Shown here: positions 14,536 to 47,282 of the stretch, in pieces
Layout: every line of letters begins with the position of its first letter
How positions within the stretch are numbered: position 1 is the stretch's first letter
DNA from: Coriobacteriia bacterium
GTDB lineage: Bacteria; Actinomycetota; Coriobacteriia; Anaerosomatales; PALSA-660
DNA length: 61,514 nucleotides
Assembly: GCA_030651905.1 (NCBI GenBank)
Contig: JAUSBS010000065.1
Coordinates: forward strand, 1-61,514
Direction of reading: 5' to 3'
Notes under the pieces: model-generated
What the model saw: the letters and a program-made list of their open reading frames with translations, nothing else
Database searches by the model: none
What the model was told of the DNA's origin: nothing
Program-made: the position numbers and the translations under genes

Positions 14536-14537
14536 CG

Positions 14538-30282: not shown

Positions 30283-30294
30283 CGCTCCTGCGCC

Positions 30295-31560: not shown

Positions 31561-32157
31561 CTACTTCGTCTGGACGCCCTGTCCGACGGTGAGAACGATC
31601 TGTGAGTCGCCGTACAGCATCGTCGCGCTGTTGGTGCCGACCGTGACCACCTGCCACGGGGTGCTACCCAGCTGCTCGCCCGCCGCGAGGGTGTACATGG
31701 TCGCGCCGAGTCTCAGGACCGCCTTGCGAACACCGTTCTCCTCGATGATCTCGAGCAGCGTGAGTGTGTTCTCGTCGTCAGTGCTCGCCGCGGACCCTTC
31801 GACGGCCGTTGCGCTCGAAGGCACGACGACAGGCTGGAACGGGTCGCGTGGCGTGAACACTTCGCTGTTCTCGATCATCGGAACGGCCGCGACGACCGAC
31901 GTGCTCGCCTGAGAGCCGGCGGTCTGTGTGGTCACGATGCTTCCGGGGATCTCCTCGACCGCCGTCTGGAACAGGCTGAAGCCGATGGCGCCGAGAACGA
32001 TGACGGCCACCACCGTCACGATCGTCAGCAAGACGACGATCGCACCGCCGATGATGACGATCTTGCCCAGCGTGGTCGCGAAGAACGCCTTGAACCCCCC
32101 GGGCTTGTCAGGCGCGGGAGCGTCGGGGGTCACGCTCTGGATGGACTCATCGGACAT
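31561..32157 (-). CDS. PilP-like pilus assembly protein (TM anchor, RDPF motif, C-terminal beta domain)
   Basis: 198 aa. It has one TM helix, then TPRDPFQP (PilP proteins carry an R-x-PF motif), then LTLLEIIEENGVRKAVLRLGATMYTLAAGEQLG...VVTVG, which resembles the PilP/GspC homology region. It directly follows pilO. Confidence 0.45.
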   Translation of the reverse strand: MSDESIQSVTPDAPAPDKPGGFKAFFATTLGKIVIIGGAIVVLLTIVTVVAVIVLGAIGFSLFQTAVEEIPGSIVTTQTAGSQASTSVVAAVPMIENSEVFTPRDPFQPVVVPSSATAVEGSAASTDDENTLTLLEIIEENGVRKAVLRLGATMYTLAAGEQLGSTPWQVVTVGTNSATMLYGDSQIVLTVGQGVQTK

Positions 32158-32178: not shown

Positions 32179-32787
32179 TCACTGTCCGACGGCCGGCGCG
32201 GGCTGAACCGCTGCCGGCTGCTGGCTGATCGCATTCATCACATACGCGCGCATAGACACGGAGGCTCCTATATCCGGCGCCTCCGTCGACGTCGTCGAGA
32301 CAGACGCGAGCGGCGTCATCGCCACATCGGTGACACGGATCGCCCTCGTCATACGATTGAGGCGACGCAGGTAGTCGAGCACGTCGGGCCAAGCCCCGGT
32401 GACGCTCGTCGTGATCAGTACCTCTGAATACTGCCCGCCTGCCGTGGGCGCGGGCATGCTCGGGGTGATGTTGTCGAAGCGTATCCCCGCCGCGTTCGAG
32501 ACATCCTGCAACTCGATCACCAGGGCCGGCAACTCCGGCTTCTCCGGGAACTGGTTGCCGATCGCCAGCAGCTCCGCCTGCGTCACGGACGCGTTGGCCT
32601 TGGCCTGCTCGAGCTGTGCCAGGAGGCCCTTCGTCTGCGCGATCTGATCGTTGGCGGCCTGCAGCTCGGCCTCGAGCGTCGACATCTCCCCGAACTTGGG
32701 GACGATGAGCAGGGCCACGCCAGCGATCACGACGACCGCCATGAGCGCGATCACCGCGAGCATCTTCTGCATCGACGTCAGTTTCAT
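32179..32787 (-). CDS. pilO: Type IV pilus assembly protein PilO
   Basis: 202 aa with a TM helix, a coiled coil (EAELQAANDQIAQTKGLLAQLEQAK) and a C-terminal domain. It lies after pilN. Confidence 0.7.
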   Translation of the reverse strand: MKLTSMQKMLAVIALMAVVVIAGVALLIVPKFGEMSTLEAELQAANDQIAQTKGLLAQLEQAKANASVTQAELLAIGNQFPEKPELPALVIELQDVSNAAGIRFDNITPSMPAPTAGGQYSEVLITTSVTGAWPDVLDYLRRLNRMTRAIRVTDVAMTPLASVSTTSTEAPDIGASVSMRAYVMNAISQQPAAVQPAPAVGQ

Positions 32788-32818: not shown

Positions 32819-33487
32819 TCATTGGCTCGGCGGGGCAGGAACGCCCGGACTACTTGCAGTCGCGGTTGCGGGAGCGGAGATCTCGGCGGTCACACCGAAC
32901 GTGATGAAGAAGTCGGTCTGTGCGATGCTCCCGGTCGCAGCGGCCGGCTTCACCGAGTTGGTGAGCCACACGCCGTCGAGTTGCTGAAGCTCAGCCAAGC
33001 GTGAAAGCAGCTTCGCAATCGACCGGTAGCCGAGGTCGGGAACGTCGTTGGGCACATCGAGCGCCTTGCCGCCGATGGTGAGCTGGCCCGGCGTGCCGGG
33101 TAGACCGGCCGCGCCCGCTAGCGGCTGGGCGGCACCCATCTGGATGAGGTAGATGTCACTCGGCAGCACGAGCGCCACCTCGGAAAGAAGCCGCGACCAG
33201 TCGACACGGCCGGCAAGCGCGCTGGCGACGATGCCGCGCCGAACCGCGAGGTCGGCCTGCTTCTCCTGGAATATCTGGAAGCGCTGTGCCTGCTCTCCGA
33301 GTACGGCCGCCTGTTGCTTGACGGAGGCGACCTCGCCTTGCTTCATCGAGACCTGCAACTGCAGGAGCATGAACACTCCCGCGAACACGACCGCAGCGAC
33401 GATGCCGCCGATGATGACCCACTGCCAGCGGTGCTCGTCCTTGCGCTTCTGCCCTATCTCGGGAGGAAGGAGGTTGATGCGTATCAC
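32819..33487 (-). CDS. pilN: Type IV pilus assembly protein PilN
   Basis: MIRINLLPPEIGQKRK followed by a TM helix. GTGA overlap with pilM. Confidence 0.8.
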   Translation of the reverse strand: MIRINLLPPEIGQKRKDEHRWQWVIIGGIVAAVVFAGVFMLLQLQVSMKQGEVASVKQQAAVLGEQAQRFQIFQEKQADLAVRRGIVASALAGRVDWSRLLSEVALVLPSDIYLIQMGAAQPLAGAAGLPGTPGQLTIGGKALDVPNDVPDLGYRSIAKLLSRLAELQQLDGVWLTNSVKPAAATGSIAQTDFFITFGVTAEISAPATATASSPGVPAPPSQ

Positions 33488-34635
33488 GTCGTCATACCCC
33501 CCATGGCCAGACCGATGGCCGCGACAGCGCCCATCCTGTCAGCCTGCACGAGCGTCGCTGCCTGTGGCGCGACCTGGATCCAAGAGAGAGGGTCGGCGAG
33601 TTTGACCTCGGCCTGAAGTCCTTTTTCGAGATAGCCCGCCAGGAAACGCAACTGTGCGCCGCTCCCGGTCAGCAGGATCTTGCGGATCGTGCGCACCTGC
33701 GTCGCCTGCGTGAGGTAGTAATCGAGCGATCGGCGGACCTCGGCGATGAACTTGCTCACCTCGCGCTCGAGCGCGTCCTGAGCCGTCTGGGCGCGCACCG
33801 GATCGATGTCCGACGGGAAGTCGCTCTGCCCGTGCTGATTGATGTCCGGCAGGCCGACCCGCAGCTTGAGATCCTCTGCTTCGTCGAAGGTGAGGTTGAG
33901 AGAGTTCGCGATCGCCTGCGTGAACTGGTTGCCCGCCAGCGCGGAGACACGAGTGAAGCGCGGGATCCCCTTCTCGACCACGGCGATGTTGGTGAGACCG
34001 GCCGAGATGTGGATGATGCCGGTCGCCTCGCCCGCTTCATCGGCCTCGTCGGGCAGCACGCTGGTGCTCGCACCCATGAGCGCACGCACGATGGCGAACG
34101 ACGTCACGTCGATCTGCTGGAGCCGCAGGCCCGCTTCCTCCACTGCGCGCACGGCGTTGCCGATCATGTCGCGCTGCGCGGCGACGAGCAGAACCTCCAT
34201 CATGTGCTCGTCCGTGGAGGTCATGTAGTCGCCGATGATCTGGAAGTCCAGGATCGCGTCCTCGATGGGGATCGGGATATAGTCCTGCGCCTGGTACTGG
34301 ATCGCCCCCTGGAGCTCGGAGCGTTCCATGTAGGGAAGATCGATAAGTCGAACGACGACCTTCTGGTTGGACACGCCGATCGTGCAGTCTCTCGGGTGCA
34401 GTCCAGACGAGCGGACCATCTCGCGAACGGAGGCGGCGACCGCCTCGACATCCACGATCTCGCCCTCGACCACGGCCCCCATCGGAACGCTGACCATGGC
34501 GTAGCCGGTGAGCATGAAACTACCGCCCACAGGTTTGACCTGGGCTACCCTGATGTGGTCGGTGCCGATGTCCAGGCCGACAACGACCGGAGACGGACCG
34601 AGGGAGATCGGAGCCACTGGAGTCCCCCACTTCAC
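33484..34635 (-). CDS. pilM: Type IV pilus assembly ATPase-like protein PilM
   Basis: Actin-like fold (VVGLDIGTDHIRVAQV). The start is uncertain: I chose GTG 34633-34635, while the track start at 34704 would run through a promoter-like stretch. Confidence 0.8.
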   Translation of the reverse strand: MKWGTPVAPISLGPSPVVVGLDIGTDHIRVAQVKPVGGSFMLTGYAMVSVPMGAVVEGEIVDVEAVAASVREMVRSSGLHPRDCTIGVSNQKVVVRLIDLPYMERSELQGAIQYQAQDYIPIPIEDAILDFQIIGDYMTSTDEHMMEVLLVAAQRDMIGNAVRAVEEAGLRLQQIDVTSFAIVRALMGASTSVLPDEADEAGEATGIIHISAGLTNIAVVEKGIPRFTRVSALAGNQFTQAIANSLNLTFDEAEDLKLRVGLPDINQHGQSDFPSDIDPVRAQTAQDALEREVSKFIAEVRRSLDYYLTQATQVRTIRKILLTGSGAQLRFLAGYLEKGLQAEVKLADPLSWIQVAPQAATLVQADRMGAVAAIGLAMGGMTT

Positions 34636-34849
34636 TGCTACGACTAAGGCTTGAACTGCTGCTGCGGCTATGCTCCTGCTCGATATGGTAGCACACCGCG
34701 GCATTCGTCAACCAGCGAGCCGGCGGCCTCCGCGCAGAGGCGCCGACACATGTCACACAGCCAGTATCGTACACAATGCGGCGGGCAGAGGCCACGCCCG
34801 TGTTTCCGCAGGCATCGGCGCCCGAGCGACGCCGCGCATCGCCTGCCCC

Positions 34850-35692
34850 TCAGGCCGCACCGAGCAACGACAGGTACCAGACCCACGCGGCCGGCCCGAC
34901 GAGCACGCTGGCCACTCCACCGAGGGCGAGGTAGGGACCGAAGGGTACACGGTGCGTCGCCGCGGACTCACCGCGCCGGAACGCGTCCAGAAGCCCTGAG
35001 ATGGCGCCTAGCAGACTGCCCACGAAGAGAGCCATAAGCACGAACGGACCCAGGAACACGCCCATCGCGCCAAGGAGCTTCACATCGCCCATTCCCAGTC
35101 CGGTGCGGCCCCGGAGCCGCCCGTAGAGCGCGGCGATCCCGCCGCTCAAGCCGGCGCCGAGAAGCGCTCCCAGAGCGCTTGTGACGAGCGGCTGACCGAG
35201 AAGACCTCCACCGGAGACAGACAACAGCGGGATCGCCTCGATACCCGTCACCTGTGAGACCACGGCGCCTATGAGACCGATAACCGCCAGAGCGCCCACA
35301 AGGGCATTGGGCAGCCGGTACGTGTCGAGGTCTATGAACGTGAGCACCATGAGGATGTAGAAGAACGCGACGCAGACCACGGTCCTAAGCGAGAACCCGA
35401 AGCGCAGTGCGGCGGTCAGCCAGAGAAGTCCCGACAGCAGCTCCACCAGCGGATAGCGCACCGCGATCCGCTCTCCACAGTCCCGGCACCTCCCCGTCAA
35501 CGCCAGCCATGAGAGCACCGGCACGTTGTCATGCCACCTGATCGCGTGGTCACATGCGGGGCAATGCGACCCGGGAGAGACCACGGACTCACCGCGCGGG
35601 AAGCGCCAGACCAGCACGTTGGCGAAACTGCCGAACAGAAGTCCGAACAGCCCGACGGAGAGCAAGAAGAACCACTCAGGCACTGAGTACAC
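34850..35692 (-). CDS. pilD: Prepilin peptidase (A24 family)
   Basis: The start is set at GTG 35690-35692, 4 nt after GGAGG. Zn-finger-like CPACDH...CRDCG and a polytopic body with GMGDVKL. Confidence 0.85.
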   Translation of the reverse strand: MYSVPEWFFLLSVGLFGLLFGSFANVLVWRFPRGESVVSPGSHCPACDHAIRWHDNVPVLSWLALTGRCRDCGERIAVRYPLVELLSGLLWLTAALRFGFSLRTVVCVAFFYILMVLTFIDLDTYRLPNALVGALAVIGLIGAVVSQVTGIEAIPLLSVSGGGLLGQPLVTSALGALLGAGLSGGIAALYGRLRGRTGLGMGDVKLLGAMGVFLGPFVLMALFVGSLLGAISGLLDAFRRGESAATHRVPFGPYLALGGVASVLVGPAAWVWYLSLLGAA

Positions 35693-35817
35693 GGAACCTC
35701 CAGTCGCGTGCGGTGCAAAGTCAGCGTAGCAGAGCGACGGCGCCGTGCGAGGTCCGGGCAACGAGAAGGGCCGGCGGATATCCGCCGGCCCTTCCGAACT
35801 CGAGTGGTATGTGAATC

Positions 35818-36192
35818 CTAGTATGCGTGGACAGGAGCCACGGTACGGAAGTTCGTGCAGTTGAAGTTCTCGCTGGCCGGCACATACGTGTAGGTCGCGT
35901 CGTCACTCGGGCAGGTCGGGAAGGTCTTCACGTACGGCCCAAGATAGTCAGCGCCCGCCATGATTGCAGTCGTGTGTGTGGCCGTGGTCGCCACATGCGC
36001 GGGATCCTCGGCCTTCCACTGCTGGACGGCACCATCGAGGGTGCGGAGGTTCGCGACACAGGTCTTCGCACGCGCGGTGCCGCTTGCGGCGTTGAACACA
36101 GGAATCGCGATGGCAACAAGGATACCGATAATGAGAACGACGACCATGAGCTCTACGAGGGTGAAGCCCTCGTCCTTACGGAACATCTTCAT
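35818..36192 (-). CDS. pilA: Type IV prepilin
   Basis: The start is set at ATG 36190-36192, after a GGAAGGTGGA SD. The class III signal peptide reads MKMFRKDEG/FTLVELMVVVLIIGIL, with Gly at -1, Phe at +1 and Glu at +5. Confidence 0.85.
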   Translation of the reverse strand: MKMFRKDEGFTLVELMVVVLIIGILVAIAIPVFNAASGTARAKTCVANLRTLDGAVQQWKAEDPAHVATTATHTTAIMAGADYLGPYVKTFPTCPSDDATYTYVPASENFNCTNFRTVAPVHAY

Positions 36193-36352
36193 GAGATGTC
36201 CACCTTCCCTTCGTTTCGTCGGTACTGGCACGCGCCTGACGCGCGTTCCTTCCACACTTGAGTATATCGGCACCCGGACAGGCACCTTTAGCACCCTTTC
36301 CGATGGCCGGTGACAACGATCACACCGCCGCATCGACCACCGCCCTTCGTGC

Positions 36353-37570
36353 TCACTTGATCAGAGTGATGACCTGGAACATCGGCATGTACAGTGCGAT
36401 GACGATCGCGCCCACGAGCAGGCCCATTGTAGCCATCATCAGCGGCTCGATGAGCGAAGTGAGGCCATCGACCGCGGTGGACACCTCCTCGTCGTAGAAG
36501 TCCGCGATCTTGTTGAGCATCGCGTCGAGCGCGCCGGTCTCCTCGCCGACGGCGATCATCTGGACCAGCATGGACGGGAAGACCGGCGACTCGGAGAGCG
36601 GCTTGGCGATCGTCTCGCCCTCCTTGATGGCGGACCGAACCTTCTTGACCGCCATCTCCACGACCGCGTTGCCCGACGTCGAACCCACGATCTCAAGCGC
36701 CGACAGGATCGGCACGCCTGCGGAGACCAGCGTGCCGAACGTGCGGGTGAACTTCGCGAGCGCGATCTTGCGGACCATCGAGCCGAAGACCGGCATCCGC
36801 AGCTTGATGCTGTCCCACATGTAGCGTCCCGACTCGGTCCCCTTCCACCAGCGGAAGAGGATGTTGAAGGCGATGACGCCGATCACCGTGAACAGCCCCG
36901 GCAGACCGCGAGAACCCTCGGAGATGGCCACGAGGACCTGGGTCGGCAACGGGAGTTCGCCGCCCATGTCCGAGAACATCTTCTGAAAGACGGGCACGAC
37001 GAACACCATCATCGCGATCAGTATGACCAGCACCAGACCGCCCATCGCGAGCGGATACGTCATCGCCGACTTGATCTTCGCCTTGAGGCGCTGTTCGCTC
37101 TCGAAGTGGTCGGCCACGCGGCTGAGGACCTCGTCGAGAACACCACCGGTCTCCCCCGCGCGGACCATGTTGACGAAGATGGGCGGGAACACCTTGGTAT
37201 GCTTGCTCATCGAGTCGGACAGCGACTGACCGGCCTCGACGTCCTTGCCGACCTGCGCGATGATGATGCGCAGCCCGTCGCTCTCCGTCTGCTGGCCCAG
37301 GATCGTCAGGCACTTCGTCAGCGATAGACCCGCGTTGATCATCGTCGAGAACTGCCGCGCGAAGATCGTCACGTCCTTCGGCTTGACGCCCGTGCCGAAC
37401 TTCAACTGACTCATCTGGCCGATGAGACCGCCGCCGGACTCCTCCAGGCTGACGATGACATAGCCCATCTGACGCAGTCGCGCGGATACGGCCTCCTTGC
37501 CCTCGCCCTCGAGGCTGCCGTCGACGGTCTTGCCCGTCTTGTCGCGTACCGTGTACTTGAAGGTCGCCAT
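36353..37570 (-). CDS. pilC: Type IV pilus platform protein PilC (T2SS F family)
   Basis: 405 aa with the duplicated T2SSF domain architecture and 3-4 TM segments. Confidence 0.9.
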   Translation of the reverse strand: MATFKYTVRDKTGKTVDGSLEGEGKEAVSARLRQMGYVIVSLEESGGGLIGQMSQLKFGTGVKPKDVTIFARQFSTMINAGLSLTKCLTILGQQTESDGLRIIIAQVGKDVEAGQSLSDSMSKHTKVFPPIFVNMVRAGETGGVLDEVLSRVADHFESEQRLKAKIKSAMTYPLAMGGLVLVILIAMMVFVVPVFQKMFSDMGGELPLPTQVLVAISEGSRGLPGLFTVIGVIAFNILFRWWKGTESGRYMWDSIKLRMPVFGSMVRKIALAKFTRTFGTLVSAGVPILSALEIVGSTSGNAVVEMAVKKVRSAIKEGETIAKPLSESPVFPSMLVQMIAVGEETGALDAMLNKIADFYDEEVSTAVDGLTSLIEPLMMATMGLLVGAIVIALYMPMFQVITLIK

Positions 37571-37591: not shown

Positions 37592-38680
37592 CTACTTGTC
37601 GGTCCTGCCGAGCAGGGTCTTGAGCACCGCGGGATCGCTCGCCTGGCTCAGTGCGGTCTCATATGCGATGAGTCCACGTCGGTAGAGATCCGCGAGCGAC
37701 TCGTCCATCGTGCACATCCCGTACTGGTGCCCGGTCTGAAGCGCCGTCGGCAGCTGGTGCGTCTTCGCTTCCCTGATCAGGTTGCGTATGGCCGCTGTCG
37801 GAACGAGCGTCTCGGTGGCCAACACACGTGACCTGCCGTCCAAGGTCGGAAGCAGCTGCTGACTGATTATACCTTGGAGCGTCGCGGATAGCTGGATGCG
37901 TACCTGCTGTTGTTGATGCGGCGGGAAGACATCGATGATCCGATCGATCGTCTGCGTCGAGTCCTGGGTGTGCAGAGTGGCGAACACGAGGTGACCCGTT
38001 TCGGCCGCCGTGAGCGCCGCCGAGACCGTCTCGAGGTCCCGCATCTCCCCGATCAGGATGACGTCGGGATCCTGGCGCAGGATGAACTTGAGCGCATGAC
38101 CGAACGTCTTCGTGTCGGAGCCGACCTCGCGCTGGTTCACGATCGACTTCTGGTGGTGGTGGAGATACTCGATGGGATCCTCCACCGTGATGATGTTCAC
38201 GGACCTGTGGGTGTTGATGTGGTCGATGATCGAGGCAAGCGTCGTGGACTTCCCTGAGCCGGTCGGGCCGGTCACCAGCACGAAGCCCCTCGGCTTGCAT
38301 GCGAACGTCTCGATGATGGGAGGCAGTCCGAGTTCGGAGAACGACTTGATCTCGGCCGGGATCAGCCGGAAGGCGGCTCCCACGCTCCCGCGCTGAAAAT
38401 AGGCGTTCCCTCGGAATCGGGCCTTGCCCGGGATCGCGTGCGCGAAATCGTATTCCCAGGTGCGCTCGAGCGCCTCCCGCTGGTCCTGTTTGAGGATCGC
38501 GTAGAGCAACTCCCGCGTGTCCTGGGTCGTGAGCACCGGTGCTTCGAGTTCGACGAGCGCGCCGTTGAGCCGCATCGTAGGAGCACGGCCGACCGTGACG
38601 TGCAGATCCGAGCCTCCGAGCTCGAGCACTCGCACGAGCAGTTCGTTGATGTCGAGCCCTGTTGCTGTCCCGCTGGACAT
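37592..38680 (-). CDS. pilT: Twitching-motility retraction ATPase PilT
   Basis: 362 aa. Walker A GPTGSGKST and the PilT signature AIRNLIREAKTHQL. Confidence 0.9.
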   Translation of the reverse strand: MSSGTATGLDINELLVRVLELGGSDLHVTVGRAPTMRLNGALVELEAPVLTTQDTRELLYAILKQDQREALERTWEYDFAHAIPGKARFRGNAYFQRGSVGAAFRLIPAEIKSFSELGLPPIIETFACKPRGFVLVTGPTGSGKSTTLASIIDHINTHRSVNIITVEDPIEYLHHHQKSIVNQREVGSDTKTFGHALKFILRQDPDVILIGEMRDLETVSAALTAAETGHLVFATLHTQDSTQTIDRIIDVFPPHQQQQVRIQLSATLQGIISQQLLPTLDGRSRVLATETLVPTAAIRNLIREAKTHQLPTALQTGHQYGMCTMDESLADLYRRGLIAYETALSQASDPAVLKTLLGRTDK

Positions 38681-38696: not shown

Positions 38697-40448
38697 CTAT
38701 ACGATGACGCGCGTGACCTCTTCGACCGAGGTCTGACCCATCCTGACCTTCTCCAACCCGTCCAGACGCAGGGTCATCATGCCCTGCTCGATCGCGACCT
38801 TCTTGATCTCCTCTGCCGTCGCCCCCGCGACAGCCAGATGGGAGATCTCCTCGGACATGAGCAGGACTTCATGCACCCCCATGCGGCCTCGATACCCTGT
38901 GCCCCCGCACTTCTTGCAGCCCTTGGGCCGGAAGAGTCTCTCGGGGAGATCGTCCTCAGTGTAGCCCGCATCGAGAAGGAGTGCCTTGGGCGGGCTGTAC
39001 TCCTCCTTGCAGTCGGAGCACAGCCGCCTCGCCAGCCGCTGGCCCAGGATGCAATCCACGGCCGAGGACACGAGGAACGGCTCGACGCCCATCTCGACCA
39101 ATCGGGTGACCGCGCTCGGTGCGTCGTTGGTGTGCAGCGTCGAGAGCACGAGGTGACCGGTCAGCGCGGACTCGATAGCGATCTGAGCGGTCTCGTAGTC
39201 GCGGATCTCGCCGACGAGGATGACGTCCGGCGAGCATCGCAGGAAAGAACGCAGTGCTGCGGCGAAGGTGAGTCCCGCTCTCGGGTTCGTCTGGATCTGG
39301 TTGACACCCGGGAGGCGGTACTCGACCGGATCCTCGGCGGTGATGATGTGGCGGTGCGGCTCGTTCAGCACATTGATGGCCGCATAGAGAGACGTGGACT
39401 TCCCGGAGCCGGTCGGCCCCGTGACGAGGATGGCACCGTACGGCTTGCGGAAGGAGCCCTCGAACCGCTCCAGAGAGTTGGGCAGGAAGCCCAGATCGGA
39501 GAGCTTGAGCAGGATCGAGTCCTTGCGCAGGATACGCAGAACGACGCGCTCACCGTAGACCGTGGGCAGTGTCGAGACACGGAAGTCCAGCTTGTGACCC
39601 GCGATCGTGAGGGCGCAGTGGCCGTCCTGCGGCTTGCGCGTCTCAGCGATGTCCATGTCGGCCATGATCTTGAACCGGCTGAGGATGGCGGCCTGCGTGG
39701 ACTTCGGACTCCGCATGAGTTCGTGCAGGACGCCGTCGATCCGGTACCGTACGCGCAGATCGCGTTCCTGAGGCTCGACGTGGATGTCGGATGCCCGGTC
39801 GGCGACGGCCTTCGTGATCATGAAGTTGACGAGCTTGACGATCGGCGCATCCGAGGTCACCTCGGAGAGCGCCCCGAGATCGTCGCTCGACAACTCGTCG
39901 GTCCCGGCCATCCAGTCGTCCGCGTCGACGTGCTCGGCGACCTTGTAGGCGTCCTCCAGGTACGCGAGGATGTCATCCTTCGTCGATATGGCGGGCCGGA
40001 TCTCGAAGCCCGTGATGATCCGCAGATCGTCGAGGGCGAGGACGTTCTGCGGATCGGCCATGGCGACGATGAGGCGGTTCTGCTCGTCGAAGCCCACGGG
40101 CATGAGCACGTAGCGCACGGCGAGGTCCTTCGGAACGACCGCGATGGCAGTCGGGTCCGGCTTCCGCTCGCTGAAGTCGATATAGGGGATGCCGATCTGC
40201 TGGGCCATGACCGCAAGGATCGCGCCCTGAGTAGCGTAGCCGAGCTCCACGAGAACCCGACCGAGCGGACTGCCTGTCGCCTTGTGGACTTCGATGGCGT
40301 CGTTGAGCTGGCCGTCGGTGATGACGCCGGCCTTCATGAGGAGCTGACCCAGACGCTGTCCGGCTTCCGCCACGGAGTGACACGACCTTCTGTGGGAGCG
40401 ACAGACAAGGTGAGCGCCGACGGCGCGCTCGCCTTCATGGTACGCCAT
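38697..40448 (-). CDS. pilB: Type IV pilus extension ATPase PilB (GspE family), copy 1
   Basis: Motifs GPTGSGKST, GEIRD, LSTLHTNDA, and a tetracysteine CSDC...CKKC. The start is uncertain (ATG 40448 or GTG 40373). The track's longer start reads the (EP)n repeat in another frame. Confidence 0.85.
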   Translation of the reverse strand: MAYHEGERAVGAHLVCRSHRRSCHSVAEAGQRLGQLLMKAGVITDGQLNDAIEVHKATGSPLGRVLVELGYATQGAILAVMAQQIGIPYIDFSERKPDPTAIAVVPKDLAVRYVLMPVGFDEQNRLIVAMADPQNVLALDDLRIITGFEIRPAISTKDDILAYLEDAYKVAEHVDADDWMAGTDELSSDDLGALSEVTSDAPIVKLVNFMITKAVADRASDIHVEPQERDLRVRYRIDGVLHELMRSPKSTQAAILSRFKIMADMDIAETRKPQDGHCALTIAGHKLDFRVSTLPTVYGERVVLRILRKDSILLKLSDLGFLPNSLERFEGSFRKPYGAILVTGPTGSGKSTSLYAAINVLNEPHRHIITAEDPVEYRLPGVNQIQTNPRAGLTFAAALRSFLRCSPDVILVGEIRDYETAQIAIESALTGHLVLSTLHTNDAPSAVTRLVEMGVEPFLVSSAVDCILGQRLARRLCSDCKEEYSPPKALLLDAGYTEDDLPERLFRPKGCKKCGGTGYRGRMGVHEVLLMSEEISHLAVAGATAEEIKKVAIEQGMMTLRLDGLEKVRMGQTSVEEVTRVIV

Positions 40449-40498
40449 CGTAGGGCGGCTCGACAGGCGCGGGCCACGAGCTGCGGCATCGTCTCGGA

Positions 40499-41200
40499 TC
40501 AGCCGTGCCGAGCGCGCTTCAGGTCGTTCAGAAGGACGGCGGCGAGCCGCTGATACTTGAGGAACGTCGCCGTCCCGGCCTTGATGCCCACCCGTTGCGC
40601 TCCGTCCGAGAAGGAGAGTTCGACCGGCGCGACCATCGTGTACTCGGGAACGGCCCGCGACGGTTCGGGTTCGGGCTCCGGTTCGGGTTCGGGCTCGGGT
40701 TCGAGCTCGGGTTCGGGCTCGGGTTCGAGCATCGGGACGGGTGCCCAAGGACGCGCGAGCGGTTCCGACTCAGGGATGCGAGCTGCATCAGGTGCCGACA
40801 CGAAGGACTGTGACGGGATCGACTCATCTGCACTCTCGAGAAACGTCTCGCGCGTCGGAGCGAGGGCGGCGATAGCCGTCTCGAGCTCATCGGTGAAGCG
40901 ATCGATCCGCGGACCGTCCGATTCCCACGCGGTCGCGAGCGCCGGTGGTGTGACCAGAGCGGCCGCGGAAGGCGCGGGGGTCGCTTCGTCTGGTGGCGTC
41001 GTCTCATGCGGCGCCCAGGAACCGATATCGAGCGGAGTACTGAGACTCTCGTGTGCGCGGTGGTCGAGCGGTGACGGCGTGGCAGGAGCGTGGCTGTCGA
41101 GTTGCCGCCGACCCGCTCCCATGAGCGAGGCCAAGAAGTACACGAGCGCCGCCAGTAGCAGCACCGACGCTGCGGACAGGATGGCGAGCTTCGCATCCAC
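40499..41200 (-). CDS. Membrane-anchored Pro-rich/(EP)n protein with a small C-terminal domain (unknown function)
   Basis: 233 aa with a GTG start 5 nt after the GTPase stop. An N-terminal TM helix (LAILSAASVLLLAALVYFLASLM) is followed by RR, a Pro-rich region, then [23 protein letters not shown] and a roughly 50-aa tail. Confidence 0.5.
   Translation of the reverse strand: MDAKLAILSAASVLLLAALVYFLASLMGAGRRQLDSHAPATPSPLDHRAHESLSTPLDIGSWAPHETTPPDEATPAPSAAALVTPPALATAWESDGPRIDRFTDELETAIAALAPTRETFLESADESIPSQSFVSAPDAARIPESEPLARPWAPVPMLEPEPEPELEPEPEPEPEPEPEPSRAVPEYTMVAPVELSFSDGAQRVGIKAGTATFLKYQRLAAVLLNDLKRARHG
40661..40730 (-). repeat. Coding tandem repeat (6-nt period; gggttc/gggctc units) encoding (EP)n
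   Basis: The DNA reads ggttcgggttcgggctccggttcgggttcgggctcgggttcgagctcgggttcgggctcgggttcgagc. Confidence 0.9.
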
Positions 41201-41205
41201 CGCGC

Positions 41206-41784
41206 TCAGCTCATGCTGTCGAGGATGCGGTAGAGCAGCCCCAACAGGACGCCCTTGACCGAGTCACGATCGCGCGCGTCCACAGGGAGCAGCGCCACGT
41301 CCTCGGCCAGTCCGAGGCTCACACGCAGAGAGGACAACGCCTCGGCGTCGTCTGGACCGACCTTGTTGGCGGCAACCACGAACGGGACATCCGACATACC
41401 CCTGAAGAACTCGATCATCGCGACCGCTTCCTTCACCGAGTCGTCAGAGAGCGCGTCGACGAGCACGACGAATCCGAGCATCCCCTCGGAGAGCGTCTCC
41501 CACATGAAGGAGAAGCGCTGCTGTCCCGGCGTGCCGAACAAGTAGAGGACCACGTCGTCTGAGATCGTGATCCTGCCGAAGTCCATGGCGACCGTCGTCT
41601 CGCCCTGCCCCTCGCCCGATGTGTCGGTGATCTGGCGCTCGGTCGAAAGGACGGTGATCTCGCTCACCGACTTGATGAAGGTCGTCTTGCCGGCATTGAA
41701 GGGTCCGGTGACGACGACTTTCACTGACTGCATCTGTTGGGTCGCTCCCGTCGGTCGAACGTGCCTAGAGTCGCTTGACGCCAT
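41206..41784 (-). CDS. Small Ras-like P-loop GTPase (MglA/CvnD-like)
   Basis: G1 motif GPFNAGKTT, switch-I region [10 protein letters not shown]3 motif LFGTPGQ, and a G4-like AANKVG. The alternative start at ATG 41733 would remove the 20-nt overlap with the upstream gene. Confidence 0.75.
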
Positions 41785-43858
41785 AGATGAGCTTGTGCAA
41801 GAGTTCGCGGTCCACGTGACTGTCCCTATGAAGCACGGGGGCCTCGCCTTCCGGCCCGGAGATCTTCGCGGCAGTCGCCACGGGACGAGCGCGCCCCGTG
41901 CCGCCGCCCGTGAGGGCGGTGAGTTCGTCGCCGAGCCCGGACGAGAACGACACCGCGCTCGAGTCGAAGTCCGCTAGGAACGCGTCGGTCGAGATGACGC
42001 CGGCGGGTTCGGAGGTCGCATCCGCCGCTGACGTCTCTTCGTCGAGTGCCGGACGGATGTCGACATCCACCGACATGTCATCGTCATCACCCCCGAGGCT
42101 TCCGAGCAGGTCCGCGATCTCCGGGAGATCGACGCCGATCGGCTCGGGCTCGGGTTCGGGTTCAACCGCGAGAGATTCCGAGGGCAACTCGCCCAGGCCG
42201 AGAGCCATGAGATCTACGGCGAAATCACCGGTCCGCTCAGGAACGCCGGGGGGGCCGCCGGTCGCATCCAGCGCGACCTCTTCAACAAGGGATGGCGTGG
42301 TCGGCTCGGCTTCGAGCGTGGCAAGCAGATCGGCAAGGTCCCCGGACATCAGTTCCGGTACAGACACCTCGTCATCGGTAGGCTCCGGTTCCGGACTCTC
42401 CGGCGGCAAGGGCTGCACAACTGCGAGCGCCTGCAGCGCCGCTTCGACCCCCATATCGGGCGCCTCCCACTCGAGCGACGCCGCCGGCTCTGCAGCCAGA
42501 GGATCCACCTCGACGGGAAGAGGCGCCCACGCCGGTGCGGAGCCGGTATCCGGCTCCATCGCCGATCCTATGGCGCTCGTCGGCTCCGGGACGCCTTCGG
42601 ACGCGGCGATCTCAGCTACGACCCACGACGGAAGCGCCTCATCCGGCTCGGGTTCGGGTTCGGGCTCGGGTTCGACGACAGGTTCCGGCTCGGGTTCGGG
42701 CTCGACGACAGGCTCGGGTTCGGGCTCGGGCTCGGGTTCGACCACAGGTCCCGGCTCGGGTTCGGGCTCGACGACAGGCTCGGGTTCGGGCTCGACGACA
42801 GGCTCGGGTTCCGGCTCGGGCTCAGGCTCGGGCGCGGGCTCCGCAAGGTTCGAGATCGCGGATTCAGCGTCTTCATCCAGAGTCGGCGCCACCGGAGGCG
42901 CCTCGAGGACCGCTCCCATCATCTGCTCGAAGACGGCCATATCGTCCGCACTCGGGGCCGGCGCATCGACGGAGAGGAAGGCAGGCTCCTCGGCGACACG
43001 ATCCTCGGACACGTCCGATGAGGACGCCGCGGCGACTTCCGGATTCTCGCTCGCCCATGTCGCCTTCGGTCTCGCGGCATCCTGCCGGGCGATCGTCGCC
43101 TCCAGCTCCACGCGTTCGGCCCTCAGCCGGACGACCTCCTCGTCCGAGGCCACTTCCAGCAGCCCGGCCGAGAACAGACCGTAGATCACGCGAGCTACCT
43201 CGAAGTCGGTGCGTCCGAGTTCTCGAGCAAGCTCCGCTACCGAGCGCGTACCGTCCACCTTCAACAGCAGATTCCACTCGACGGGCTTCAGTGAGATGTC
43301 GAACGTGCCTTCGCCCGGCGCCGTGGCCATCTTGAACACGATGTCCATCGACGGGATCTTCTTCTTTATGCGGGTCCACTCCTCGAGGCGGCGCGAACCC
43401 TCCATCACGATGTTCTCTATGGACACCGAGAGGCCGATGTCCTCCTCGGGCGCGGACTCCAGTGTCTCGAAGTCGAAGTCGCCATCGTCCCACCGGAACA
43501 GGTCGAAGATCGTGTCCTGTATCTGCTCCTGGACGAACGCCTCAAGGACCTTGGACGAGGTGAATCCCTCGTCGACGAGGATCTGTCCGAGCCTTCGCCC
43601 GGTCGGCTGCTCGGCCCGCTGTACATCGAGGGCCTTGGACAGTGCACTGGGAGTGATCTTCCCGGCGGCGACCAGTCGCGTCCCGAGCGGCTCACGGTGC
43701 CAGTCGGATTGGGCGAAGAAGACCTCGCCGTCACGGAACCAGACACTGCCCTCGGCCTCGGCGCGCTTGATATGCAGGACGCCCGACTTCCCGCTCAGCG
43801 TCACGAGTTGGAAGACGTCGGGCAGGCTGAAGTCCTTCAGGTTGCCGCGCAGTGCCAT
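41765..43858 (-). CDS. PATAN/DUF4388-domain protein with a long acidic, Pro-rich low-complexity region
   Basis: 697 aa. The N-terminus reads [49 protein letters not shown], followed by a helical insertion ([16 protein letters not shown]). A second globular region spans about 150-250 aa. After that come (EP)n/VV repeats. Confidence 0.7.
42141..42164 (-). repeat. Short (EP)4 coding repeat with the same DNA unit
   Basis: The DNA ggctcgggctcgggttcgggttca encodes EPEPEPEP. Confidence 0.8.
42644..42842 (-). repeat. Coding tandem repeat array encoding (EP)3-5-VV units
   Basis: About 200 nt of gggttc/gggctc hexamers, interrupted every 30-36 nt by gacgacagg. The peptide is [62 protein letters not shown]. 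Confidence 0.9.
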
Positions 43859-43918
43859 GCTTTGCGGTCCGCTCCCCTATTGTGTCGCGACGCCCCGGCC
43901 TGTCAGGCCGGCCACGCC

Positions 43919-44545
43919 TTATCGCAGAATGTCGCCGATCGCGCCGGCCGTCTCGCGCATGTCGTACAGGACGAGACCGAGCTTCGATCCCGGGGCTGAG
44001 AGTGCTGTGAGGACCGCTCGGTCCCCCGCCGCCATGAGCAACACGTATCCGTCGGCGCCTTCGATGAAGACCTGAGACAGGTGCCCGCGCCCGAGTTCCG
44101 TGGCCGCGCGCTCGCCCAGACCGAGGATCGCCGCCGACATGGCGCCGACCCGGTCCTCCTGCATGCCTTCCGGAAGCGCCGAAGCCATCGTGAACCCGTC
44201 GAGACTGACCAGCGCAGCGGCCTGCACGTCGGGCGAATGCTCCATGAGGCCGTCGAGCGCAGCGACGAGCCGCTCTTCGCGGGAAGCTTGGCGCGCCGCC
44301 GTCTGCGGTCGCACCGATGATGCCCCCGGGCCGGGGACAGCGATCGCGGCCGGCGTCGGAGCCGGGGCAACAGGCGCCTGCGGTGGCGAGACGGGTACTG
44401 GAGCGGCAGCGACGGGCACCGCGACCGGCTGAGCGACCGCAGAGACGACCGGAAGTACGACCGGAGCGCTCAGCAGTTCATCGTCTTCGTCCGTTCCCTC
44501 ATCGACCTCGCTGATGAAGTAGTCACCGATGCCGGCATCTGCCAC
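43919..44545 (-). CDS. Roadblock/LC7-domain protein (MglB/CvnB-like) with an acidic/Pro-Ala-Val-rich N-terminal extension
   Basis: The start is set at GTG 44543-44545, preceded by a GGGGGAGGTG SD. The C-terminal domain reads AALVSLDGFTMASALPEG...QVFIEGADGYVLLMAAGDRAVLTALSAPGSKLGLVLYDM. Confidence 0.7.
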   Translation of the reverse strand: MADAGIGDYFISEVDEGTDEDDELLSAPVVLPVVSAVAQPVAVPVAAAPVPVSPPQAPVAPAPTPAAIAVPGPGASSVRPQTAARQASREERLVAALDGLMEHSPDVQAAALVSLDGFTMASALPEGMQEDRVGAMSAAILGLGERAATELGRGHLSQVFIEGADGYVLLMAAGDRAVLTALSAPGSKLGLVLYDMRETAGAIGDILR

Positions 44546-44651
44546 GTCTCTCCACACCTCCCCCGACCGCGGGCGCAGGTACGCCCGGGGACACGTCAAC
44601 AAGCCTCTCCGTCCATCCGAGGCCCTTGCGTCCAGTGTTGCACGACCGCTA

Positions 44652-44686
44652 CTCGCGAACAACCGCGAACGACCCGTGTTCGAGAG
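44652..44686 (-). promoter_or_regulatory. Hairpin in the 159-nt spacer after pilB copy 2
   Basis: ctcgcgaaca pairs with tgttcgagag (9 of 10 bp) around a 15-nt loop. No U-tract, and the function is unclear. Confidence 0.25.
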
Positions 44687-44704
44687 ACCCGAGGAAGCGA
44701 TGCT

Positions 44705-46381
44705 TCAGACCACGACGCGCATGATCTCCTCGATGGAGGTCAGTCCCATCCGAACCTTCTCCATACCGTCGTCCCGCAACCTCAGCATGCCTTCTGCAAC
44801 GGCCTGCCGGCCGAGATCGTCGGCGGAGGCATGCTCGACCGCCATCCGCTCGAGCGTCTCGCTCATCGCGAACACCTCATGGATGCCCATCCGCCCCTTG
44901 TACCCGATGCTGTTGCAGCGCTTGCATCCCTTCGCCCGGTACAGGGTAGGCGGGTTGCCCGGTTCGTACGGGAAGCGGATCCGCTGAAGGACCTCCTCGG
45001 TCGGCGTATACGCCTCCTTGCACTCCGGGCACAGGCGCCGCGCGAGACGCTGGGCCAGCACGCAGTTGACCGCGGAGGCTGAGAGGAACGGTTCGATGCC
45101 CATCTCGGTGAGTCTCGTTATCGCACCGGGGGCGTCGTTCGTATGCAGGGTGGAGAGCACGAGGTGGCCGGTCAGCGCCGCCTCGATCGCGATCGTCGCG
45201 GTCTCCTTGTCACGGATCTCACCGATCATGACGGTGTCGGGGTCTTGGCGGAGGATGGAGCGGAGAGCCGCGGCGAACGTCAGTCCCGCTCGCTCGTGCA
45301 CCTGCACCTGGCTCAACCCTTCGAGTCGATACTCGACGGGGTCCTCGACCGTGATGAGATTCGTCGTCGGGTCGTTCGTCTTGTTGATGGCCGCATACAG
45401 CGTCGTCGACTTGCCCGAGCCGGTAGGACCGGTGACGAGGATGCAGCCGTACGGCTTGGTGAGCGCGTCCATGAGGCGCTCCAGCGGCTGCTCGAGGAAG
45501 CCGAGGTCCTCGAGAGACATCATGATCGAGTCGCGGCGGAGCAAGCGGATGACAGACATCTCTCCCTGGACGGTCGGCAGGACCGCCACGCGGAAGTCCA
45601 CGGCCTTCCCGTCCAAGACGACGCCGAACCGGCCGTCCTGCGGCTTGCGCTTCTCCGCGATGTCCATCCCGGACGAGATCTTCACTCGGCTGATCAACTG
45701 ACGATGGAGCTTCTTCGGGGAGCGGACGACCTCCTGGCAGACTCCGTCGATGCGGTAGCGCACCCTGAGCTCATGCTCCTGGGGTTCGATGTAGATGTCG
45801 CCGGCGCCCTGCCTGATGGCCTCCGTGATGATCAGGTTCATGAGTTTGGCGACGGCGGACTCTTCCCCGACCTCGTCGGCGTCCTCATCATCTGCGGATC
45901 CCGCAGCCAGCGAGCCCGTGACATCCCCGACCATGCCTTCGACATCGGTCTGCATCGCGGCGTACTTCTCGATGGCCTGGAGTAGCTCGCTCTCGCACGC
46001 TACGACGGGCCGGATCTCGTAGCCCGTGACGATCCGGAGGTCATCGATAGCGAATATGTTCGCCGGATCCGACATCGCGACCACGAGCTCATCGTCCTGG
46101 TGCGCGATGGGCAAGACGTTGTAGCGGCGCGCTAGATCCATGGCCAGCAGGGTCGCTGCGTGAGCGTCGATCTCGTACGCGCCGATGTCGACGAACGTCA
46201 GCCCCATCTGGTCGGCCACGGCCTGAGCGATCTTCGTCTCCGTCGTGACACCAGCCTGAACGAGGGCCTGCGAGAGCGTGAGGCCCTCGGAGTCAGCGAG
46301 GGTCTCGTCGAGCTGCGCCTCGGTGATCACTCCGGCCTTGACGAGGATCTTGCCGAGCCGTTTGCCGCTGGCGGCGGTCAC
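44705..46381 (-). CDS. PilB/GspE-family ATPase, copy 2
   Basis: 558 aa. GTG start 1 nt after the aroE stop, with a GGAGGG SD inside aroE. Motifs GPTGSGKST, GEIRD, LSTLHTNDA and CPEC...CKRC. Confidence 0.85.
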   Translation of the reverse strand: MTAASGKRLGKILVKAGVITEAQLDETLADSEGLTLSQALVQAGVTTETKIAQAVADQMGLTFVDIGAYEIDAHAATLLAMDLARRYNVLPIAHQDDELVVAMSDPANIFAIDDLRIVTGYEIRPVVACESELLQAIEKYAAMQTDVEGMVGDVTGSLAAGSADDEDADEVGEESAVAKLMNLIITEAIRQGAGDIYIEPQEHELRVRYRIDGVCQEVVRSPKKLHRQLISRVKISSGMDIAEKRKPQDGRFGVVLDGKAVDFRVAVLPTVQGEMSVIRLLRRDSIMMSLEDLGFLEQPLERLMDALTKPYGCILVTGPTGSGKSTTLYAAINKTNDPTTNLITVEDPVEYRLEGLSQVQVHERAGLTFAAALRSILRQDPDTVMIGEIRDKETATIAIEAALTGHLVLSTLHTNDAPGAITRLTEMGIEPFLSASAVNCVLAQRLARRLCPECKEAYTPTEEVLQRIRFPYEPGNPPTLYRAKGCKRCNSIGYKGRMGIHEVFAMSETLERMAVEHASADDLGRQAVAEGMLRLRDDGMEKVRMGLTSIEEIMRVVV

Positions 46382-46382
46382 A

Positions 46383-47282
46383 TCAGCCCTCCGTCATGAT
46401 GCGCGCCGATCCGGCGAGTGAGGCCTCGGCGGCGGTCCGCATCACGTCACGCGGTGCACGGTTCTGCATGCCTTGGTTCCAGATCTCGATCGCGATCGCT
46501 CCCTGCGCGACGAGCATCCCGAGACCCCCGACCACACGCGCGCCCCGGGAAGTCGCGGCCGCCATGAACGGCGTGACCGCGGGACGGTACACCATATCGG
46601 CCACGATCTGACCGGGCTGGAGCCACTCCTGTGGGACTGGCAGCTCGTCGTCGGGACGCATCCCGAGCGGTGTCGCGTTGATGATGACGTCAGCCGCCTC
46701 GATGATCGCCTGGGCCTCCGGCCCGAACGCCACGGCATCCGCCTTCGTCTCCCGCAGCCGGTCGGAGAGGTTCTCGATCATGTCTTCGGCGATATGCACA
46801 CGCCGTCCTACCAGCGTCACCTGTCCGACGCGCTCGAGCACCATACCGACAAGCGCTGCTCCCGCTGCGCCTCCGGTGCCAAGGATGACCGCGCGCTTGC
46901 CCGCGGGCGCGAGAGCGGCCTCGTCCTTGAGCGACTCCATGAGGCCGCGACCGTCGGTGTTGTAGCCGATGAGCTTCCCGTCCACGACGTGGACGGTGTT
47001 GACCGCCCCGGCCAACTGGGCTGCGGTGGCCACCTCGTCGCATACATTCAGCATCACGCGCTTGTACGGCATCGTGACGTTGAAGCCGACGAACGGCAGG
47101 GCTCGAAGTGCGGTCGTCACACGGACGAGGTCCTGACCCTCGCGAACGGGCAGCGGCACGTACGCCCAGTTCAGGTTCATGGCCGCATAGGCGGCGTTGT
47201 GCATCGCGGGCGAGAGGGTATGGTCCAACGGCCAGCCTATGAGGCCCGCAAGCTTGGTGTTCGCGTCGATCATCATCGCCAC
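46383..47282 (-). CDS. aroE: Shikimate dehydrogenase
   Basis: 299 aa: GLIGWPLDHTLSPAMHNAAY and NVTMPYK. Confidence 0.9.
   Translation of the reverse strand: MAMMIDANTKLAGLIGWPLDHTLSPAMHNAAYAAMNLNWAYVPLPVREGQDLVRVTTALRALPFVGFNVTMPYKRVMLNVCDEVATAAQLAGAVNTVHVVDGKLIGYNTDGRGLMESLKDEAALAPAGKRAVILGTGGAAGAALVGMVLERVGQVTLVGRRVHIAEDMIENLSDRLRETKADAVAFGPEAQAIIEAADVIINATPLGMRPDDELPVPQEWLQPGQIVADMVYRPAVTPFMAAATSRGARVVGGLGMLVAQGAIAIEIWNQGMQNRAPRDVMRTAAEASLAGSARIMTEG

Follow-up and report, generated by a model that had tools for sequence, protein, structure and literature searches.

A stretch of DNA of 61,514 nt from a Coriobacteriia bacterium (GenBank assembly GCA_030651905.1, contig JAUSBS010000065.1, forward strand; referred to here as the window) was analysed with regard to a cassette of four genes that lies in a type IV pilus (pil) operon. 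Across positions 38697–46381, six co-directional open reading frames (ORFs) were located on the minus strand, the four of the cassette being flanked by full-length PilB/GspE genes, pilB2 upstream and pilB1 downstream (Table 1). The cassette encodes a Roadblock/LC7 protein, a protein with an N-terminal PATAN (DUF4388) domain, a small GTPase and a membrane protein, referred to as the tether. This arrangement had been proposed in a preliminary description made from the letters alone; ORF analysis and Pfam searches confirmed it, and profile searches upheld the assignment of the Roadblock/LC7, PATAN/DUF4388 and small GTPase families.

Gene models and layout of the locus

Two start codons were revised. 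For the GTPase, the ATG at 41733 (MQSVKVVV, 175 aa) is almost certainly the true start in place of 41784, judging by homologue lengths of about 175 aa and by alignments beginning at residue 1: among the 120 best homologues listed, nearly all had 175 aa (a few 170–176) and aligned from the first residue. The 20-nt overlap with the PATAN gene therefore becomes a gap of 31 nt. For pilB1, the GTG at 40373 is probably the start, since in 60 related loci this is where conservation of the N-terminus (VAEAGQRLG) sets in; PilB1 is then equal in length to PilB2 (558 aa), and the gap between the tether gene and pilB1 is therefore about 125 nt. The junctions given in the preliminary description (within the cassette a 60-nt gap, a 20-nt overlap and a 5-nt gap; 159 nt to pilB2 and 50 nt to pilB1) were arithmetically right, and of these the overlap and the 50 nt fell away with the corrected starts. 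The Roadblock start at 44545 is backed by the N-terminal motif M[AV]DxGIGDYFISD, which is kept in relatives.

On the minus strand, no terminator-like site was found from 46381 to about 35700, i.e. from pilB2 to the prepilin peptidase gene, which is consistent with co-transcription of the cassette with the pil genes. Promoter and terminator scans performed at chance level and were used solely for this lack of terminator-like sites inside the operon. The G+C content was even across the region, and nothing suggests a mobile element at the locus.

Table 1. Positions of the cassette genes, their predicted parts and the neighbouring pil genes in the window
Feature	Position	Strand	Description	Support
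pilB2	44705–46381	minus	PilB/GspE-type assembly ATPase, 558 aa, upstream of the cassette	Pfam T2SSE 3.5e-136, MshEN 8.5e-23
Roadblock/LC7 protein	43919–44545	minus	208 aa	Pfam Robl_LC7, E 9.6e-18, aa 96–182
Roadblock protein, N-terminal motif	44444–44545	minus	acidic/aromatic	
Roadblock protein, linker		minus	Pro/Ala/Val	
Roadblock protein, Roadblock domain	43922–44260	minus		
PATAN scaffold protein	41765–43858	minus	697 aa	Pfam DUF4388 (PF14332), E 3.3e-35, aa 4–161
PATAN protein, PATAN domain	43376–43849	minus		
PATAN protein, insertion	43523–43690	minus	MshEN-like, four helices	
PATAN protein, putative winged helix	~43124–43306	minus		
PATAN protein, linker		minus	acidic/Pro-rich, ~390 aa	
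PATAN protein, C-terminal motif	41768–41947	minus	conserved	
Small Ras-superfamily GTPase	41206–41733	minus	175 aa; by its motifs, MglA-family groups 2–5/CvnD-like	
Membrane tether	40499–41200	minus	233 aa	no Pfam family
Tether, membrane helix	41120–41188	minus	aa 5–27, then RR	
Tether, linker		minus	Pro/Glu-rich, with (EP)n	
Tether, C-terminal domain	40502–40648	minus	~45 aa	
pilB1	38697–40373	minus	PilB/GspE-type assembly ATPase, 558 aa from the probable GTG start	Pfam T2SSE 2.7e-138 and MshEN
pilT	37592–38680	minus	putative	sequence and Pfam families of syntenic genes in L001–L003
pilC	36353–37570	minus	putative	sequence and Pfam families of syntenic genes in L001–L003
Pilin	35818–36333	minus		Pfam N_methyl
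Prepilin peptidase	34850–35761	minus		Pfam A24_N_bact/Peptidase_A24
pilM	33484–34704	minus		Pfam PilM_2
pilN-like	32819–33487	minus	222 aa, between pilM and pilO, presumably PilN-like	no Pfam match
pilO	32179–32787	minus		Pfam PilO
ORF beyond pilO	31561–32157		198 aa, within the pil operon	no Pfam match

Occurrence and gene order in relatives

A search with the N-terminal region of the PATAN protein returned 357 proteins, all from Actinomycetota where named (Coriobacteriia, Anaerosomatales, Nitriliruptorales); when species-representative genomes were scanned, at least 442 of them had a relative. All of the top 80 loci came from Coriobacteriia-type metagenome-assembled genomes, plus "Coriobacteriaceae bacterium EMTCatB1". 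The window proteins were mapped onto all fetched loci (numbered with the prefix L). Loci with a PATAN protein at least 71% identical to that of the window were defined as the close clade, which comprised 82 loci, i.e. about 80 Coriobacteriia-type species genomes plus metagenome contigs.

Within the close clade, the Roadblock gene was located upstream of the PATAN gene in 79/79 informative loci and pilB2 upstream in 71/71, and the order GTPase-(tether)-pilB1 was found in every locus reaching far enough downstream. This conservation in sequence and order over about 80 species-level genomes is far beyond chance, and the cassette is not a chance insertion.

Gene content varied in the remaining loci. 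The order aroE-pilB2-PATAN-GTPase, without a Roadblock gene, was found in L001, L002, L003, L089–L094, L096 and L097; pilB1 comes after the GTPase in every one of these loci that is long enough, L097 ending too soon. Those of these distant Roadblock-less loci that were inspected leave no room for a tether gene. The Roadblock gene is present in L087, L088 and L098. L087 shows the order Roadblock-PATAN-GTPase-pilB-pilT-pilC, with a single pilB and unrelated genes upstream; L098 shows Roadblock-PATAN-GTPase-tether-pilB-pilC, again with a single pilB and with a toxin-antitoxin pair upstream; and in L088 aroE-Roadblock-PATAN-GTPase-pilB is followed by a PilT-like ATPase carrying an MshEN domain, with no pilB2 upstream. 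The four-part composition given in the preliminary description is thus not a fixed one: several lineages have neither Roadblock nor tether, and the GTPase is degenerate in some.

The upstream context of the module varies between aroE-pilB2, a YebC-family regulator gene and a ParE/Phd pair, and PilB1 is encoded directly downstream of the GTPase or the tether in every related locus reaching that far. What does not vary across Actinomycetota is a PATAN and a GTPase gene immediately upstream of pilB; it is the PilB downstream that accompanies the module throughout. The connection with the pilus machine that had been drawn from the window was strengthened by this survey of gene order, as the cassette invariably adjoins pilB whatever lies upstream.

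PilB2 and PilB1 are 52% identical, and both have a T2SSE core with an N-terminal MshEN/GspE_N domain, Walker A and Walker B motifs, a His box and four (zinc-binding) Cys residues. The N-terminus of PilB1 (40200–40373) holds a near-canonical 24+5+24 MshEN-type motif, RLGQLLMKAGVITDGQLNDAIEVH-KATGS-PLGRVLVELGYATQGAILAVMAQQ, which is highly conserved, whereas in PilB2 (N-terminus at 46210–46381) the second MshEN half-motif is degenerate, with little conservation over 75 loci. Of the two PilBs, it is PilB1 that the sole PilB of L087 and the first one of L088 resemble more closely. With pilB2 absent upstream in L087, L088 and L098, PilB2 is a lineage-specific addition upstream of the module, and the position between two PilBs is a trait of the window lineage and its nearer relatives, because some distant loci have one pilB only.

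The preliminary description had also suggested that the cassette selects one of the two PilB paralogues, i.e. that it switches the platform between PilB1 and PilB2 as extension motors for different pilins or modes. The cassette does lie exactly between both pilB genes in the 71 informative close relatives, the catalytic motifs are kept in both PilBs, and the N-terminal MshEN motifs in which the two differ belong to the region bound by cyanobacterial PATAN domains. In L087 and L098, however, the module accompanies only one pilB, and in L088 a pilB and the PilT-like ATPase; in some lineages with two PilBs, moreover, Roadblock and tether are missing and the GTPase is dead. As a general function, selection of a paralogue was therefore dropped; since the module exists with a single pilB, it would be at most a derived function, and as an account of the window it is considered quite improbable.

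Some further variation was recorded in the pil genes themselves. In the window, pilB1 and pilC are separated by pilT; of the 44 close-relative loci (L007–L086) long enough to include pilC, only 15 have pilT at this position. In L088, a Nitriliruptorales-like contig, the gene at 13439–15022 encodes a PilT-like core, 57% identical to the window PilT, with an N-terminal MshEN domain fused to it (527 aa). ParE/Phd pairs occur in two relatives, in L003 at 13467–14086 between pilB1 and pilT, and in L098 at 288–868 just upstream of the pil operon.

Domains and variants of the cassette proteins

The Roadblock protein was compared with the Protein Data Bank (PDB), where 7F8M was the best match (1.4e-23), together with 9JUE, CvnB5 (3LEQ; 1.7e-9) and Rv3364c. 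Pairwise BLASTP against CvnB of Streptomyces chartreusis gave no alignment. An Asp-Gly pair (LVSLDGFTMAS), noted for Roadblock partners of group 2–5 GTPases (Wuichet and Sogaard-Andersen 2014), is conserved in its relatives. The N-terminal motif continues as M[AV]DxGIGDYFISDxDDE...APVVVP, is conserved in about 60 loci and is followed by the variable Pro/Ala/Val linker; this extension is typical of the window clade and lacking in L087 and L098.

For the GTPase, the best Pfam match was ATP_bind_1 (7e-18), with Arf, Ras, Roc and EF-Tu weaker, and its homologues are named 'ATP/GTP-binding protein' by NCBI. The motifs were read as G1 GPFNAGKT, G2 ETTV, G3 LFGTPGQQ, G4 NKVG and G5 DAR. The window and all 69 close relatives in which the region is readable have the P-loop GxxxxGK[ST] in the form GPFNAGKT, and GQ is kept in all 63 parsable ones. 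According to Wuichet and Sogaard-Andersen 2014, GTPGQ together with Thr in place of the arginine finger of MglA marks groups 2–5 of the MglA family, CvnD included; the window GTPase has both GTPGQ at G3 and, in G2, Thr for the arginine finger of group 1, and its G5 DAR is similar to groups 2 and 3. By these motifs it is a Ras-superfamily GTPase of MglA-family groups 2–5, CvnD-like. The family profile matched Rab and Ras in the PDB at about 1e-8, and there were no MglA structures among its best 60 matches. An AlphaFold model built from a shallow alignment (members at least 78% identical) had a mean predicted local distance difference test (pLDDT) score of 59.8 with an unreliable N-terminal half and was excluded from the fold search.

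Degenerate variants of the GTPase were found outside the close clade, and a metagenome scan for further pseudo-GTPase loci gave only 8 loci. L002, L003, L089 and L090–L094 have GTT at Walker A, without the Lys, and GEE, GDE or APD where the catalytic Gln would be; L098 has GRDTS and GDE, and the G3 motifs are altered in L096 and L097. Most pseudo-GTPase loci are also without a Roadblock gene; a strict coupling of Roadblock loss to GTPase decay was rejected, this being a trend only, with counter-examples in L001 and L098 and with about nine roughly independent lineages sampled. In the degenerate lineages the pseudo-GTPase gene still sits between the PATAN gene and pilB. Since a gene for the GTPase fold is retained in the operon even without catalytic residues, as read from the alignments, a scaffold role probably exists alongside any switch role.

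An alignment of 26 PATAN family members divided the PATAN protein into four parts: the PATAN domain with its insertion, a conserved segment of about 60 aa (EW..L...DG.R.V.E.A...FxxARxLYGLxxAGLLE), the variable acidic/Pro-rich linker and a conserved C-terminal motif (GLGxElxALTG...R...D..i....L..li.GvK.L). A receiver (REC) domain was searched for without a match, the winged helix, disordered linker and C-terminal motif standing in its place. The AlphaFold model of a short homologue, P0030 (mean pLDDT 81), showed a PATAN fold of strand-helix-strand-strand-strand, four helices (residues 58–121) and strand-helix, then a three-helix-plus-hairpin unit (192–236), a disordered stretch and a C-terminal helix (314–326, pLDDT near 78). 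The unit at 192–236 gave weak matches to many winged-helix families, and a winged helix is thus taken to follow the PATAN domain. Its identification as CvnC/DUF742 was not supported, hhalign against one DUF742 protein giving a probability of 1.5% and weak Pfam matches appearing in 3 of 18 members (best E 0.008). Foldseek of the model against the PDB returned nothing at E ≤ 0.001, the best weak matches being SEA/GATOR1 subunits and MarR winged helices. The SEA/GATOR1 matches (E 0.02 or worse, non-significant) are noted as a lead only; these subunits are GTPase regulators with longin/roadblock and winged-helix domains.

The helical insertion of the PATAN domain (aa 57–112) matched NCBIfam NF053729, a cyclic di-GMP (c-di-GMP) motif related to MshE, at 44.5 bits against a cut-off of 38, and the family profile matched the N-termini of PilB (5TSG, 8e-10) and MshE (5HTL, 5e-7). 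On this profile evidence the insertion is homologous to the c-di-GMP-binding MshEN motif of PilB/MshE. MshEN was described by Wang et al. 2016 as a c-di-GMP receptor of two tandem 24-residue motifs, RLGxxLLxxGLLxxxxLxxxLxxQ, with a 5-residue spacer; the insertion had been likened to repeats at the N-terminus of PilB-type ATPases by Han et al. Its second half-motif, RRLGxILVDEGxxxxxVLExFVQEQ, is intact and nearly invariant.

These findings, together with the highly conserved 24+5+24 motif of PilB1, would also suit a c-di-GMP-responsive adaptor, in which the GTPase fold is mainly structural and c-di-GMP is bound by the PATAN insertion and the MshEN domain of PilB1; the persistence of pseudo-GTPase variants, i.e. 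the dispensability of hydrolysis in some lineages, points the same way. This adaptor is regarded as unlikely, though less so than a paralogue selector, and the same holds for its proposed output, the licensing of PilB1 at high or low c-di-GMP (cf. the FimX-PilZ-PilB complex or MshE). Against it, the first half-motif is degenerate with a spacer longer than that of MshEN, the PATAN homologue of Thermus (see below) keeps GTPase and Roadblock partners without having the insertion, and the retention of GKT (69/69) and GQ (63/63) in the close clade argues for selection on catalysis. No GGDEF motif was found in the 61-kb window, which says nothing about the whole genome, and a few loose HD..GYP matches were not credible.

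The tether architecture was found at the same position in at least 38 relatives, with total lengths of 125–533 aa, a range for which the Pro/Glu-rich linker accounts, and also in the more distant L098. All homologues have the N-terminal helix (xDxRLYILgg...) followed by an Arg/Lys cluster. By the positive-inside rule the bulk of the protein is predicted to be cytoplasmic, as had been proposed for the window protein, and the basic cluster fits this orientation throughout. The C-terminal domain (consensus EYxLVAPVE[LM]xF..GxxRVGV[RK]xGTxTxxxFQRxAxxLLxDL) probably forms two strands and a helix. An exhaustive search with this domain gave 131 representative proteins at E ≤ 1e-3 (a word-indexed search gave 2 matches only), and in almost all of the 131, which vary greatly in length, it is at or near the C-terminus. 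No relative of it was found in Pfam or the PDB; a match to L25 at E 0.3 was dismissed as noise.

Three of the four cassette proteins are predicted to consist of a folded domain, a long disordered linker and a short conserved motif, and their conserved terminal motifs fit a tethered multi-protein assembly. At 42645–42841 and 40662–40736, tandem DNA repeats with periods of 6, 12, 24–36 and 66 nt encode the (EP)n/EPEPxVV stretches of the PATAN and tether linkers.

Comparison with known systems and proposed function

Neighbourhoods of PATAN, MglA-like (group 5) and MglB-like genes were reported by Wuichet and Sogaard-Andersen 2014 and, as quoted in a citing paper, by Makarova et al. 2006, and Han et al. 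found MglA/MglB homologues to be regularly encoded near PATAN genes. The same three families lie side by side on a plasmid of Thermus thermophilus, where the GTPase, encoded between the DUF4388 and Roadblock genes, likewise has GTPGQ and no arginine finger. GTPase and Roadblock protein of this triad are 38% and 40% identical to those of the window, and the three proteins therefore travel as a unit. In Thermus, the PATAN homologue can be aligned over both the PATAN domain and the winged helix. It lacks the MshEN-like insertion, the Roadblock gene comes last in Thermus and first in the window, and, unlike the Thermus triad, that of the window sits in a type IV pilus operon upstream of pilB and has gained the membrane tether, long disordered linkers and terminal motifs. 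On the plasmid (pTthSNM1-7b, L100, record 33721–35850) the triad is followed by a protoglobin-domain gene, with no pil genes nearby.

The module is a pilus-dedicated variant of this known PATAN/MglA-like/MglB-like triad. The novelty claimed in the preliminary description was reduced accordingly, the triad neighbourhood and the PilB-like PATAN insertion (Han et al.) being known; full-text searches of the searchable literature found no paper on the triad in an actinobacterial pil operon, on the tether protein or on the degenerate (pseudo-GTPase) variants. The parallels it had quoted (MglA/MglB, cyanobacterial PATAN regulators binding PilB1, conservons) were found to be correct in the literature.

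Among conservons, or actinobacterial G protein systems (CvnA–D; Mfp system), CvnD is the closest annotated relative of the GTPase: the 'ATP/GTP-binding protein' of an operon for histidine kinase, Roadblock, DUF742 and GTPase in S. chartreusis shares 45% identity with it (E 2e-29). The Roadblock protein matches CvnB5, and the order of Roadblock, middle protein and GTPase is common to both systems, mirroring cvnB-cvnC-cvnD. With the winged-helix domain, and with the effect of Streptomyces conservons on transcription programmes, a generic conservon-like signalling unit was considered, whose output would be gene regulation, e.g. through DNA binding by the winged helix, of pil transcription or of unrelated genes. 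The head kinase CvnA is missing, however, no histidine kinase being encoded in or beside the cassette (the neighbours are pilB2 and pilB1), and the place of the DUF742 protein CvnC is taken by a PATAN-MshEN-winged-helix protein; without kinase and DUF742 protein, the cassette does not qualify as a conservon. At G4 the window keeps Lys (NKV) vs NxFD in conservons, which are linked to P450 or regulator genes and not to pili. That the module always adjoins pilB, while the genes upstream of it change, speaks for the pilus machine; in the view of Han et al., who showed direct binding to PilB1/PilC, the targets of PATAN proteins are proteins, not DNA; and tether and long linkers fit a membrane assembly better than DNA binding. 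Gene regulation is thus a poor candidate for the output.

In Myxococcus xanthus, a Ras-like GTPase (MglA) and a Roadblock regulator (MglB) likewise control where type IV pili form. The partners of that polarity module are SgmX, FrzS and SopA, with SofG for PilB/PilT, and PATAN proteins are among the MglA-associated candidates. MglA belongs to group 1 (TVPGQ, intrinsic Arg finger) vs GTPGQ with Thr for Arg in the window; the Myxococcus genes lie outside the pil operon, with the TPR protein SgmX as effector, whereas those of the window lie inside it.

The cyanobacterial PatA-type (PATAN-REC) regulators PixE, PixG and LsiR have a PATAN domain with a two-repeat helical insertion, as in the window. 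Han et al. showed that the PATAN domain alone binds the N-terminal domain of PilB1 and PilC, localises to the membrane and reverses phototaxis. Their input is a REC domain phosphorylated by chemotaxis-like or photoreceptor systems; since it has no REC domain, the window protein is not a PatA-type regulator, and its input is likely to be the GTPase/Roadblock pair, possibly with c-di-GMP. Tandem 24-residue motifs of the RLGxxLLxxG...LxxxLxxQ type, as in MshE/PilB, occur in the N-terminus of PilB1 and, with a degenerate first half, in the PATAN insertion; that of the window PATAN protein is nested inside another domain and is a putative c-di-GMP site.

Taken together, the cassette is read as a pilus-dedicated small-G-protein module at the head of an actinobacterial type IV pilus operon, with a probability of roughly 60%. 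PilB and the pilus platform are the likely client, because the block lies directly upstream of pilB. The GTPase would cycle between GTP and GDP, with a Roadblock dimer as GTPase-activating protein (GAP) by analogy with MglB on MglA and with the CvnB homologue MfpD, a GAP on MfpB. The PATAN protein holds the position of CvnC in the gene order, whose homologue MfpC is a likely guanine nucleotide exchange factor, and may be a GTPase partner or effector, possibly an exchange factor. Its PATAN domain would contact the N-terminal region of PilB1 and/or PilC, as in cyanobacteria, and so gate or localise pilus extension, and the MshEN-like insertion may add a c-di-GMP input. The C-terminal domain of the tether and the short conserved motifs at the linker ends would hold the complex at the membrane beside the PilM/N/O/C platform. 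PilB2 may be a second client in the window lineage; the module can do without it, as related loci with a single PilB show. Where the GTPase has lost its catalytic residues, the module would probably act as a constitutive scaffold.

Several observations weigh against this module. The Asp of G4 (NKxD) is not conserved, the window having NKVG with N and K/R kept (NKVD/NKYD in some relatives), and guanine specificity is therefore putative only. A working switch is not universal, as the Walker A Lys or the catalytic Gln is missing in L002, L003, L089–L094 and L098; furthermore, an intact GTPase occurs without Roadblock in L001 and a degenerate one with Roadblock in L098. In the insertion, the first MshEN half-motif starts with PLG (no Arg) and ends in a Gln that the family does not conserve, and the spacer has 8 vs 5 residues. 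The winged helix is not demonstrably DUF742/CvnC, and pilT is not beside pilB1 in 29 of 44 close relatives.

A bolder form of the proposal is advanced tentatively and is held to be unlikely in its entirety: a self-contained, kinase-less system by which a G protein governs the polarity or the activation of a monoderm type IV pilus, and in which a membrane-tethered Roadblock GAP and a c-di-GMP-sensing PATAN exchange factor or effector would set the state of the CvnD-like GTPase, and the GTP-bound complex would dock on the N-terminus of PilB and decide on the place and time of pilus building and on which of the two motors is used for it. Pseudo-GTPases would then represent repeated conversion to a fixed scaffold. 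If true, an operon would directly encode the bridge from the PATAN-PilB to the MglA/MglB paradigm, and the link would be ancient, spanning phyla.

The positioning of type IV pili by MglA/MglB (Myxococcus, Bdellovibrio) and the binding of PilB by PATAN regulators (cyanobacteria) have been two separate lines of work, and PATAN genes were known near MglA/MglB-like genes, but without a stated target. Here, three families and a new tether protein form one transcription-unit-like block upstream of pilB in at least 442 species-level genomes, mostly of uncultured Coriobacteriia-class bacteria from sediments and reactors. With the module, G-protein signalling of the conservon type, the outputs of which are poorly understood, reaches a defined machine, and there is a compact four- or five-protein set for reconstitution, with the pseudo-GTPase and Roadblock-less variants as ready-made evolutionary mutants. 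Many relatives are without a retraction ATPase at the pilT position, which raises the question of the role of these pili.

As a whole, the pil cluster splits a group of shikimate genes, with aroE upstream (46383–47282) and aroC, aroK and aroB downstream (28685–31443), in a conserved alaS-ruvX-mltG/yceG housekeeping region that also has an ABC transporter and a HAD phosphatase. Its placement among shikimate genes was also found in distant relatives.

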